Source of the DNA: an uncultured Bacilli bacterium
GTDB taxonomy: Bacteria; Bacillota_I; Bacilli_A; RF39; UBA660
NCBI GenBank assembly: GCA_904420615.1
Contig: CAJFVY010000035.1
Location: 1-40,698 of the forward strand
Direction: 5' to 3'
DNA length: 40,698 nt
Shown: positions 21,654 through 24,585 of the stretch, piece by piece
Layout: each line of letters starts with the position of its first letter
Numbering within the stretch: the first letter of the stretch is position 1
The notes under the pieces: generated by a model
What the model saw: only the letters and a program-made list of their open reading frames with translations
Told to the model about the DNA's origin: nothing
Databases searched by the model: none
Translations under genes and position numbers: made by a program

Positions 21654-23477
21654 CTATTTTTTTACTTTCACATTTTGTTTTGTTGTATTTTCGGAATATT
21701 TTATTTGTGCAATGGCTTGTATCTCTAAAGTACGAAAATCAATTTTACCATTAGGTGTATAAAGTAGTTTATCAACGGATTCAACATATCCTGGAACAAC
21801 CTCAGCTGATATAGATTTAGCAACAAAATCAGTTACATATTTTTTTAATTCATTTTCAGATAGTTTATTTTTGTAGTTTTCTTTTAATACTGTATATACA
21901 TAAGGAACTGTTCTGCGAACCTCATCCGGAACTCCTACTACTACACATTGATCAATAAATGGTAAGTGACTAATAGCTTCTTCCATTATTGGTGGATAGA
22001 CTTTATCAACTCCACATACAAATTGTCTCTTATAGCGTCCTTCAACATGAATCTCACCATCATGATCTATAGAACCAAAATCTCCTGTATAAAACCAGCC
22101 ATCTTTAAAGGCCTTAGCCGTTTCTTCAGGATTATTGTAATAACCCAAAGCCATGGATCTACCTGTTACGACAATTTCACTACGTTGATCATACTTTAAT
22201 TCCTCACCTGTTTCACGATCAACAATTTTGACATTATTGAAAGGAAGTGGATAGCCTACTGTACCAATTTTATTCTTTTCACCACATTTTACTGCAACTA
22301 CTCCACACATTTCAGTATTACCATAACCATTAAATATAGCATTTTTCATACCACGATTCAAATAAAATTGGTTTAACTCATTATATTTACTTATATTTAA
22401 TTTCTCGCCACCAGTTACCGCTACTTTAACATATGATAAGTCGGCATGTTGTAGTTCTCTACTTTTAGCTCCTGCTTCATAATGGATAGGACCGCCATAA
22501 ATTACGTTTGGTTTTAGTTCTACAATTTCTTTACCAAAAGTAGCTGGAGAAGAAGTAGGAAGCATATACATATGTAAACGCTTACATAAAGACAAATGCA
22601 TTGTTGAAAGACCATATGCCATAAATTGTGGTAATGGATTATATAGGGTATCTCCTGCCACTACATCACCCATTAGATATTTATGTTGATAAACAGTAGC
22701 ATTAAGAGCATCATCTGATAAAATAACTCCTTTATGTACTCCAGTAGTTCCACCAGTATGAACCATTAAGAAACCACCATTGCTAGCCAAAGCACATTCT
22801 ACCATTTTACTATCTTTAAACATGTTAATATACTTATTTTTTTTAGAAAGTGGAAGGTTTCCTTCAAAAAAGTATTTCAAATTAGCTACATTTTCAAACA
22901 ACTTAAATTTGATATCTTTATCCTCTTTTTTTATAGCAGATTGAAGTGGTGATACGATAGAAACAAAATCTAAAGGATGTTCTTTTCTGATTTTTTTAAC
23001 ACTACTATATACATTATTAATTCCTAGAAAAGCTTTTACATCACCATTTACAATATCATGTCTTAAAGTTTCTAAATTAGAGCGTGGATCAATATTGCAT
23101 GGTATAGCACCAATTTTATTTAAAGCATAAATAGCATAAACAGATTCTGGCATATTAGCAAGAGCTAATCCTACGATATCTCCCTTTGTAATTCCTTTCT
23201 TAATAAAAGCTTTTTGAAACTCTTCTATTCTAGTATGAATTTCTTCTGCCGTTATTTTATTCTTAATATATTCAATTAATATATCATTCATATGATCTTT
23301 TGTAGATTCATAAAAATAATCATATAAAGACATCTTAGGAAAATCAGTTTCTGATATTCCTTCTGGATAATGTTTTAACCATGGTTTATCAATACTTGGA
23401 TACCCTGTTAAAGTGTTTTTTAAAGCATAATCTTTAGCTTTAAAGTTTTCATTTGCTACTTCTAAATTTTTCATCAA
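21654..23477 (-). CDS. Class I adenylate-forming enzyme (acyl-CoA ligase-like)
   Basis: HTGGTTGVHKGV P-loop, GYGNTE, WFYTGDFG, GRYK, PNGKID; AGGAGG RBS. Confidence 0.9.
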   Translation of the reverse strand: MMKNLEVANENFKAKDYALKNTLTGYPSIDKPWLKHYPEGISETDFPKMSLYDYFYESTKDHMNDILIEYIKNKITAEEIHTRIEEFQKAFIKKGITKGDIVGLALANMPESVYAIYALNKIGAIPCNIDPRSNLETLRHDIVNGDVKAFLGINNVYSSVKKIRKEHPLDFVSIVSPLQSAIKKEDKDIKFKLFENVANLKYFFEGNLPLSKKNKYINMFKDSKMVECALASNGGFLMVHTGGTTGVHKGVILSDDALNATVYQHKYLMGDVVAGDTLYNPLPQFMAYGLSTMHLSLCKRLHMYMLPTSSPATFGKEIVELKPNVIYGGPIHYEAGAKSRELQHADLSYVKVAVTGGEKLNISKYNELNQFYLNRGMKNAIFNGYGNTEMCGVVAVKCGEKNKIGTVGYPLPFNNVKIVDRETGEELKYDQRSEIVVTGRSMALGYYNNPEETAKAFKDGWFYTGDFGSIDHDGEIHVEGRYKRQFVCGVDKVYPPIMEEAISHLPFIDQCVVVGVPDEVRRTVPYVYTVLKENYKNKLSENELKKYVTDFVAKSISAEVVPGYVESVDKLLYTPNGKIDFRTLEIQAIAQIKYSENTTKQNVKVKK

Positions 23478-23607
23478 CTATTCCTCCTAAAAATAAAAGA
23501 GATGGTTCTTTCCATCTCTTTTTTATTACCTATCGAGAGAAGGAGCGAGCAAAATATTAAATTATAATACTTCTACAACGTCAATACTTCTCCGACATTT
23601 GTAGACT

Positions 23608-23635
23608 ATTATATTGGCATTTAATAAAATGTCAA
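23608..23635 (-). promoter_or_regulatory. Consensus sigma-A promoter upstream of the structured leader of the adenylate-forming enzyme
   Basis: TTGACA-16 nt-TATAAT on the minus strand. Confidence 0.75.
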
Positions 23636-23835
23636 GTATTTTGCGTTACTTTCTCGAGTTCATCACGGCAATAAGATTTTACTTCATGATTTTCAAGTTC
23701 TACTTGTAACAGATTACCAATTTTAAAGACGATCGTCCCTACTTCTTTGGTATCAACTACCATTACCGTATCATCTACGTAAAAATCATCATTATCATTA
23801 TCGTCATATGTTGTATTTCTAACAATCAAGCCCAT
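23632..23835 (-). CDS. Small hypothetical protein (67 aa, possibly KOW/SH3-like)
   Basis: GAAGGAG RBS; F.VDD.V.V...KEVGTIV pattern. Confidence 0.6.
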   Translation of the reverse strand: MGLIVRNTTYDDNDNDDFYVDDTVMVVDTKEVGTIVFKIGNLLQVELENHEVKSYCRDELEKVTQNT

Positions 23836-23900: not shown

Positions 23901-24119
23901 TTACGCTTCTTGTTTTTCTTCATCTTTTGTTACAACAACTTTACCTTTGTAACTTCCACAATTAGGGCAAACACGATGAGGTTTAATCATTTCACCGCAA
24001 TTAGAACATTTAACCATACCAGGTAGATCTAAAGCATTATGACTCCTTCTCATTCTCTTTCTTGTCTTTGATACTTTTCTAAAAGGTACAGCAAACATTT
24101 GAATTTCTAATTTTAACAT
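23901..24119 (-). CDS. rpmF: 50S ribosomal protein L32 (Zn-ribbon type) with 9-aa N-terminal extension
   Basis: [22 protein letters not shown]...[13 protein letters not shown]. Start placed at ATG 24119 by the AAGGAGTGA RBS, not at 24194. Confidence 0.95.
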
Positions 24120-24138
24120 GTTTTCACTCCTTCCTATA

Positions 24139-24585
24139 TTAAAGCAAATCTTTAAATGGATTTTCTTTAACTGGACCTTGATATTCGTCTTCACTTATCA
24201 CTTTCCAGCCATCCCCAGAGAATTGTTCATAGTTTGTTACTAATGAATAATGCATAGGGATCTCTAGTAGAATATTTTCCCATAAAATGGCTAGAATATC
24301 AAGTCTATTTTCATCTTTTTTTAAATTTTCGGTAACATCTTCCTCTATTTCACAAGAAAATGGATAACTTACCTCTTCTAATGAAACAGAATCTGGAATT
24401 ACCATGGTACCAGAAATTATAGCATTTAAAGTTAATTTTTCTTCAAAATAAGTTAATTCACCTTTTATATTTACCGGATCTAACTTTATAATTTCATTAT
24501 CTTTATATATATCTTTAGGAATTTCAATTGTTTCATCTATTGGTAAACTGGTAGTTGCACCTTGTAATAATTCTGTTATTATCAT
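24139..24585 (-). CDS. YceD/DUF177 family protein
   Basis: [30 protein letters not shown]; conserved position upstream of rpmF. Confidence 0.88.

Follow-up and report, generated by a model that had tools for sequence, protein, structure and literature searches.

The window studied here is a stretch of 40,698 nucleotides (contig CAJFVY010000035.1, positions 1 to 40,698 of the forward strand, assembly GCA_904420615.1) from an uncultured Bacilli bacterium placed in Bacteria; Bacillota_I; Bacilli_A; RF39; UBA660, and "the family" below always means the family of this host. Its rpmF gene encodes a precursor of ribosomal protein bL32 in which nine residues, MLKLEIQMF, precede the usual start of the protein, and these nine residues resemble the removable leader of another protein of the large (50S) ribosomal subunit, bL27. 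In the Firmicutes and their relatives, the bL27 leader is removed by the cysteine protease Prp (MEROPS C108). From the sequences and a modelled complex, we consider it likely that pre-bL32 joins bL27 as a ribosomal substrate of Prp, with a leader that mimics that of bL27 and is cut between Phe9 and Ala10, so that Prp would gate two 50S proteins. Prp would then probably mature two ribosomal proteins, instead of one, in a family of gut bacteria with small genomes.

The rpmF product belongs to the bL32 family, scoring 92.1 bits against PF01783 (cut-off 21.3) and carrying the four cysteines of the CxxC...CxxC pattern, and no second L32 match was found in the assembly, which comprises 1.07 Mb in 92 contigs and is 92% complete. 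Positions 1-55 of the Pfam model Ribosomal_L32p correspond to residues 10-64 of the product. The PDB yielded 39 distinct solved bL32 sequences. For each of the 37 bacterial ones the alignment begins at query residue 10, or in a few cases at 11 or 13, opposite chain residues 1-5; in the best solved Firmicute chains, residue 2, the alanine after the initiator methionine, stands opposite Ala10. Because the Pfam model and the solved chains both begin at Ala10, the nine leading residues are extra and end exactly at the start of the family. A cut after Phe9 would expose the canonical bL32 N-terminus, as had been proposed in an earlier reading of this DNA from the sequence alone (the sequence-only reading below), which placed the mature terminus at AVP. 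In other bacteria, an AVP-type bL32 N-terminus is made by removal of the initiator methionine. Loss of methionine aminopeptidase was considered as a reason for the leader and ruled out, since the enzyme is encoded in this genome (TIGR00500, 328 bits).

The evidence that the leader is translated comes from its start site and from its conservation. The start codon at 24119 is preceded by a strong ribosome-binding site, as first read, with an AGGAG core 7 nucleotides away within GGAAGGAG. To collect relatives we used a junction search, in which Q-x-F/A-V-P-x-[basic]-[basic]-x-S-K (the slash marks the predicted cut) was written as a degenerate DNA pattern, and the 169 junction-bearing loci provided 121 distinct contexts. 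A Shine-Dalgarno 4-mer lies 3-11 nucleotides (mode 7) ahead of the leader start in all 121. The leader has nine codons in 93 of these contexts and eight in 16. Numbering its residues back from the cut as P1 to P9, P6 is Leu in 118 of the 121 contexts, P5 is Asp, Asn or Glu throughout (GAT 60, GAC 37, AAT 15, GAA 5, AAC 4), and P4 is throughout Ile or Leu, by way of five codons (ATT, ATC, ATA, TTA and CTT); P7 is variable, and past P9 conservation ends and stop codons occur. Gln at P3 and Phe at P1 were imposed by the collecting pattern and are not counted as evidence. As P6, P5 and P4 are kept through synonymous changes, the leader is a coding sequence under selection. Within the genus, 22 of 22 loci from other species read M-L-[KA]-L-D-I-Q-[ML]-F ahead of AVPFRK; two more genomes of the genus yielded no locus, yet they have long open frames. 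Conservation of both the extension and its ribosome-binding site in relatives, which the sequence-only reading had called for, is thus seen in all 22 of these loci and, for the extension, in 60 of 200 genera of the family.

The leader contains a second in-frame ATG, Met8 at P2, and a start there would leave the upstream codons untranslated and give a product beginning MF-AVP. In this genome the P2 codon is ATG. Of 61 family junctions counted by hand (one genome per genus), 19 also have ATG there, but 5 have TTG and 37 a codon that is not a start (TTA, CTA, CTT, AGA, ACT, GCG and ATT were seen), and therefore the internal Met cannot be a general start. As had been noted from the sequence, no ribosome-binding site precedes it: no GGAG, GAGG or AGGA word occurs upstream here, and a Shine-Dalgarno word is found ahead of the P2 ATG in none of the 72 related contexts that have an ATG at that position, compared with 121 of 121 leader starts. 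The codons upstream of the internal ATG also show amino-acid conservation with synonymous change, and two leaderless relatives (loci L061 and L062) have a AGGAGTGA box directly ahead of M-AVP. Translation from the internal ATG, which would have overturned the original proposal, is on these counts extremely improbable, and the alignments indicate that the internal Met of rpmF is simply among the residues tolerated at P2, which varies, and does not serve as a start.

The same genome supplies both the protease and its known substrate. On contig C73, rplU, prp and rpmA are consecutive and are followed by obg, an arrangement whose confirmation the sequence-only reading had asked for. The Prp protein has 105 residues, matches PF04327 at about 77-78 bits with GHA and IVC present, and aligns end to end with Staphylococcus aureus Prp (4peo/7kld, E 5e-10); the His/Cys dyad is intact, and all 29 aligned Prps of the family keep His21 and Cys33. 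The L27 of this genome starts with MKKLLLLDIQFF, then AHKKGQSS, its leader ending LLDIQFF/AHKK, and the Pfam L27 model starts at L27 residue 13, directly after DIQFF. What L27 and L32 have in common is L-[DE]-I-Q-x-F/A immediately ahead of the first residue of each family model, so that the likeness expected between the two leaders is found within one genome (DIQFF/A and EIQMF/A). The original comparison was with an S. aureus leader given as MLKLNLQFF/ASKK; its KLNLQFF portion agrees with the inhibitor Ac-KLNLQFF (PMC9261936, in the portion consulted), whereas the consulted portion of a review of Prp (PMC9405229) prints MLRLDLQFF'ASKK.

The L32 leader fits the Prp-substrate motif, which is hydrophobic-x-hydrophobic-Gln-x-Phe followed by Ala or Ser. 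A loose form of the motif, [ILVM].[ILV]Q.F[AS], was scanned in six frames (3456 stop-to-stop frames of at least 50 residues) and has 6 matches in the whole 1.07 Mb genome; only L27 and L32 among the 6 have it where the product of a recognisable gene begins. Family members differ in the predicted N-terminus of their mature bL27 (AHKKGQ, AHHKGQ, AHVKAQ and ASKKGV at loci L145-L171 and L230-L259). This bL27 tail extends to the peptidyl-transferase centre, which makes it unusual that many genera have lost one of the two lysines.

The leader also matches what is reported of Prp specificity. In the excerpts available of the review, P1 Phe is required for catalysis and P3 Gln organises a flexible loop, Leu at P4 and P6 occupies a desolvated pocket at the Prp dimer interface, P1' is limited in size, and Ser38 of Prp hydrogen-bonds the P1-P2 backbone (PMC9405229). 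The positions that Prp reads, so described, are the conserved positions of the L32 leader. We modelled a complex of a Prp dimer (29-row alignment) with L32 residues 1-40 (44-row alignment) in three runs, which scored 0.69, 0.16 and 0.71 (median 0.69; best control 0.42); of 80 solved complexes 58 reach the same score mark, as do 2 of 110 mismatched pairs. Contact agreement between the runs was at least 22%, and the predicted local distance difference test score of the partner was at least 42. The best run places L32 residues 1-13 on residues 20-23, 33-34 and 36-38 of one Prp copy, with Phe9 against Cys33, Ala36 and Ser37, and brings Leu4 into contact with residues 85, 88 and 89 of the second copy. 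A structure of S. aureus Prp with the KLNLQFF peptide has already been solved (7KLD; PMC9261936, from the part of the paper at hand), and the model may therefore owe its pass to prior exposure to that structure. The model has the L32 leader read as an L27-like ligand, and this shows likeness to the solved complex, not binding.

A translated leader could instead be retained, as a lineage-specific bL32 extension that stays on the ribosome. Lineage-specific extensions do arise in ribosomal proteins, and the solved L32 chains of Thermus thermophilus and Deinococcus radiodurans have 3-4 additional N-terminal residues, but a retained extension would have no reason to copy the L27 leader at the positions read by Prp, to stop at the first residue of the family or to track its genome's own L27 leader, and the motif is otherwise seen only on L27 and on phage tail proteins. 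To look at tracking, we compared the pair of leaders in 37 genomes at P7, P6, P5, P4 and P2 (185 cells). The leaders are identical in 123 of the 185 cells, where shuffled pairs average 111 (standard deviation 3.7) and 9 of 10000 shuffles reach 123, a figure that overstates the co-variation because relatives share leaders. At P4, the L32/L27 pairs are I/I in 30 genomes, L/L in 5 and mixed in 2, and in one genome each the same string occurs in both proteins (K-L-N-I-Q-L-F, L-E-L-Q-L-F and L-Q-R-F). Taking these points together, we regard retention of the leader as very improbable.

It could also be supposed that the leader binds Prp with a main role other than L32 maturation, either as a competitor that tunes L27 processing or as a segment removed by another protease. 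According to the excerpted review, the cleaved leader peptide is a competitive inhibitor of S. aureus Prp, and Prp holds its substrate tightly (PMC9405229); a 2026 preprint on Streptococcus pneumoniae, available in part, has as its subject an alternate protease able to rescue bL27. A competitor, however, would not need its leader to end precisely at the canonical mature terminus, and nothing here points to a second protease, so that we think either role very improbable as an account of the L32 leader.

Turning to the distribution of the leader, the junction was found in 60 of the 200 family genera sampled at one genome per genus, a reversed-pattern control giving no match, and in 17 of 49 family genomes against none of 351 genomes from 30 other families of the class. 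A class-wide scan likewise found it in none of 300 other genomes, only the host genome matching, in a scope that excluded Bacillota proper, Clostridia, Fusobacteriota, Synergistota and Thermotogota. (In the taxonomy used, the phylum around this genome appears to hold one class only, and the genomes of its families are of 0.5-3.8 Mb.) The single genome of a sister family of the order lacks the leader, its alignment beginning at residue 8. The junction pattern misses variants such as AVA or GALP after Phe. One genus has an odd junction of this sort (locus L221, G090:C2:32556-33000), with MKLDIQLF followed by GALPARR in place of AVP, reflecting either an extra Gly at P1' or a shifted mature terminus. 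Among loci from other genera, 27 of 29 have the leader; one locus from another family (L014, G038) matched neither search expression and was left out of the leader counts. The original proposal spoke of this lineage in general: the leader is indeed present there, but the claim has to be narrowed to a patchy trait of one small-genome gut and rumen family of Bacilli, with no example among the other families sampled in the class.

The start of an alignment was tried as a proxy for the leader and discarded after sequence checks in favour of counts by the junction pattern. Rows starting at query residue 1-2 without stops had the leader in 19 of 20 cases (the exception being G047), while rows starting at residue 1-6 with stops, or at 4-5, were leaderless in 18 of 20 and had it in 2.

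A quick tree was made from L21, Prp and mature L27 (284 columns, 60 genomes), with rows picked by hand (38 with the leader, 21 without and 1 outgroup from the sister family), so that the proportions in it are meaningless. The trait is clustered yet patchy, requiring 8 changes, at least 4 of which are forced by well-supported branches, whereas shuffles need 17.4 changes on average and none of 500 was as low as 8. Given that 8 changes are needed, the leader has been gained or lost several times, in a tree that cannot separate gains from losses.

Public records agree with the long form of the protein. The leader is present in 119 of the best 120 public homologues, a list drawn up independently of the collecting pattern, in which every listed leader but one has Gln, and public gene callers predict proteins of 67-72 residues. 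Most of these 120 entries are unnamed, and one is named "large subunit ribosomal protein L32". The long reading frame has thus already been annotated, under the plain label of L32, with its propeptide unnoticed. The nearest named records are uncultured gut and rumen metagenome-assembled genomes whose labels are Bacilli, Tenericutes, Mollicutes or Erysipelotrichaceae, and also Clostridium sp. CAG:451 and Candidatus Onthousia, the last being placed by NCBI in Bacilli incertae sedis. Among the first 120 metagenome matches, 110 are L32 by the four-Cys test, 6 more are, from their rows, shortened or frameshifted L32, and 4 are unrelated. The L32-like matches lie on contigs of 21-39% G+C, resembling the family, and the 4 unrelated ones on contigs of 43-55% G+C. 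Nothing among these 120, whose contigs carry no taxonomy, points to a second lineage with the leader.

Several observations weigh against maturation of bL32 by Prp. About 70% of the genera in the family are without the leader, and the trait has changed at least 8 times, and it is therefore dispensable. The AVP terminus could be obtained without a leader, methionine aminopeptidase being present. Co-variation of the two leaders is weak when shared ancestry is taken into account: the tree offers 3 independent contrasts at P4, too few to reach significance, with L27 following L32 in an average of 2.8 of them and opposing it in none (sign test, p 0.25), and two genomes disagree at P4. At P2 the L32 leader frequently carries Met, against Leu or Phe in that of L27, and at P5 it mostly carries Asp, against a frequent Asn in that of L27, so that the L32 and L27 leaders are not interchangeable copies. 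In the modelled complex, one of the three runs reached only 0.16 and one unrelated control reached 0.42. Finally, Clostridium difficile Prp did not cut the S. aureus peptide (PMC9405229, in the excerpts available), and likeness of motif alone is therefore no guarantee of cleavage by a given Prp.

On the other side, each refuting condition listed in the sequence-only reading that could be examined by computation spoke for the proposal. With these points in view, we still favour cleavage of pre-bL32 by Prp, which might proceed as follows. Translation from the ATG at 24119 would give pre-bL32 with its nine-residue leader, which would imitate the N-terminal leader of bL27 (here MKKLLLLDIQFF). A Prp dimer would recognise Leu at P6, Ile at P4, Gln at P3, Phe at P1 and a small residue at P1', and its cut between Phe9 and Ala10 would release mature bL32 with an AVPFRK N-terminus. 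Until then, the leader may delay or escort bL32, keeping it out of the assembling subunit or keeping it with Prp, and Prp would in this way gate the entry of two 50S proteins. In such a scheme the leader may act as the assembly checkpoint that the sequence-only reading suggested.

The features of the locus are collected in the table. The rpmF start codon occupies 24119-24117 and its stop codon 23903-23901; the yceD stop codon is at 24141-24139, and 19 nucleotides separate the two genes. The yceD-rpmF arrangement is the usual gene pair.

Features of the rpmF locus, in window coordinates
Feature	Position	Strand	Basis
rpmF, bL32 precursor	23901..24119	minus	Open reading frame of 72 residues plus stop; PF01783, 92.1 bits, residues 10-64
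Nine-codon leader MLKLEIQMF (P9-P1), putative Prp-type cleavage signal	24093..24119	minus	Lies beyond the Pfam model and all solved bacterial L32 chains; L27-leader motif; found in 60/200 genera
Predicted scissile bond, Phe9 (24095-24093) / Ala10 (GCT, 24092-24090)	24090..24095	minus	Predicted from the motif
Shine-Dalgarno sequence GGAAGGAG for the ATG at 24119	24127..24134	minus	AGGAG core at 24131-24127, 7 nucleotides ahead of the ATG
Internal ATG (Met8, P2), not a start	24096..24098	minus	No GGAG, GAGG or AGGA word upstream
Predicted mature bL32, AVPFRK..., zinc ribbon CxxC...CxxC	23904..24092	minus	Alignment to Pfam and to solved chains
yceD (DUF177)	24139..24585	minus	PF02620, 30.4 bits, under the curated cut-off of 33.2

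The sub-threshold yceD match covers only the C-terminal half of the PF02620 model, which marks the gene as a divergent member. Directly 3' of rpmF on the same strand is a reading frame of 67 residues (23632-23835) with a AGAAGGAGA box of its own and an acidic N-terminal half, DDNDNDDFYVDD; it has no Pfam match. Overlapping its end is a perfect promoter-like site, TTGACA-16-TATAAT (23608-23635, minus strand), followed by the sole terminator-like hairpin of the region (23495-23522, minus strand), and both are upstream of a gene for an AMP-binding enzyme of 607 residues (21654-23477).

Regarding precedent, nothing in the full-text literature searched links L32 or rpmF with Prp, a search in which supplements and Wall et al. 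2015 and 2017 were not covered and a mention is possible; to this extent, the statement in the sequence-only reading that L32 is undescribed as a Prp substrate stands. In the parts consulted, the Prp review mentions L32 once, as a tunnel protein (PMC9405229), and the name is absent from PMC9261936 and from two S. pneumoniae preprints. A 2025 preprint, again in the part consulted, describes it as unclear whether Prp acts on other substrates and reports no convincing match to the L27 leader in S. pneumoniae. What appears to be new, judged from sequence comparison, is the extension of the known system of Prp and leader to a second ribosomal protein in one family, the known substrates in the literature consulted being bL27, gp46 and gp47, with FlhB as a proposal.

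Why the Firmicute bL27 leader is made and then removed is a question that a leader-bearing L32 helps to address. If the Prp leader is a portable maturation tag, an idea put forward only tentatively below, Prp would guard 50S assembly through several substrates, and the purpose of the leader would be a general one (escort, timing or quality control through Prp binding) and not a protection of the peptidyl-transferase centre specific to bL27. The presence of the leader in some genera and its absence in sisters would mean that the signal is transferable between ribosomal proteins, and it offers a clean comparative system. Prp is also being pursued as a narrow-spectrum antibiotic target, and commensal gut lineages that needed it for two ribosomal proteins would bear on its predicted selectivity.

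Compared with bL27 and Prp, the putative L32 system is alike in having an N-terminal leader of 8-12 residues on a 50S protein, in the hydrophobic-x-hydrophobic-Gln-x-Phe stretch before a small residue, in a cut that would expose the canonical N-terminus of the family, and in the presence of rplU-prp-rpmA in the same genome. It differs in that bL32 is encoded elsewhere, at yceD-rpmF, in that the leader occurs in about 30% of the genera of one family as opposed to whole phyla, and in that P2 is often Met and P5 mostly Asp. The bL27 tail lies at the peptidyl-transferase centre, which gives the bL27 leader an obvious blocking role, whereas no comparable rationale has been shown for bL32. The N-terminal tail of bL32 is probably buried in 23S rRNA; a literature search on the position of the bL32 N-terminus in the 50S subunit, including that of mitochondrial bL32m, found nothing usable.

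Phage proteins provide a second comparison. The capsid and scaffold proteins of phage 80alpha (gp46 and gp47) have an L27-type leader and are cut by the host Prp (PMC9261936, in the portion consulted), in line with the sequence-only reading, which had pointed to the motif on some phage capsid and scaffold proteins. They resemble the L32 case in placing the leader on proteins other than L27, which makes the signal portable, and differ from it in being phage proteins that exploit a host enzyme, where here a second ribosomal protein of the host itself is concerned. Within the host's family, moreover, the motif was seen on prophage tail proteins and not on capsid proteins. When the motif scan was extended to 100 further genera, 91 of 101 genomes had at least one match (a reversed control had 2 matches), mostly one per genome (L27) or two (L27 and L32). 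We examined 17 sites from the 9 genomes whose matches L27 and L32 had not yet accounted for: 7 are L27, 2 are prophage tail proteins, 1 is inside a frame of 93 residues, and 7 are in frames of under 51 residues and were taken as chance.

The two tail proteins, from related genomes (loci L260, G133:C16:3389-4400, and L268, G071:C39:4555-5570), have the leader motif N-terminally. They are a tape measure protein (PF20155, phrog_9959) with ..LKLDIQMF/ADGE and a DUF859 siphovirus tail protein (phrog_372) with MMKLNIQLF/ASGN. Phages of this family seem, by their sequences, to use the host Prp for tail proteins and not only for capsid proteins. These leaders are consistent with the known use of Prp by phages and support portability. 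We would suggest, tentatively and as an idea that could well fail, that the Prp leader is a portable maturation tag, which evolution has attached in one family to another protein of the large subunit and to tail proteins of phages. Were the tag portable in this sense, its repeated gains or losses within the family would provide natural pairs, with and without it, for studying leader function.

A cellular protein has been proposed as a Prp substrate before. The N-terminus of FlhB, in Bacillus subtilis and others, was put forward purely from its likeness to the L27 leader (PMC9405229, in the excerpts available). The case is like ours in that a cellular protein was proposed from an N-terminal motif, and unlike it in that FlhB belongs to the export gate in the membrane and not to the ribosome. 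In the present genome, which is 92% complete, no match to the FlhB family was found.

The nearest parallel within the L32 family is mitochondrial. In the text available of PMC5438985, an N-terminal part of MrpL32 (bL32m) has to be removed by the m-AAA protease before ribosome assembly, and in yeast an ATP-dependent, processive protease removes 71 residues and halts at the folded zinc domain. Maturation by an m-AAA or FtsH-type protease was considered here only as a functional parallel: such a protease works processively through a long, unstructured presequence as far as the zinc domain, and the nine-residue leader is not of that kind. Both systems concern the same protein family, and in both N-terminal proteolysis precedes, or here would precede, assembly of the large subunit. 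In mitochondria, however, the cut is set by structure and in yeast takes 71 residues, whereas here 9 residues would be removed to an end defined by sequence, and the m-AAA protease is unrelated to Prp. The bL32m and m-AAA case is a functional parallel and not a mechanistic homology, and on the tentative view of a portable tag, cleavage of pre-bL32 by Prp would be a bacterial counterpart, independently evolved, of the proteolytic licensing of mitochondrial bL32m.

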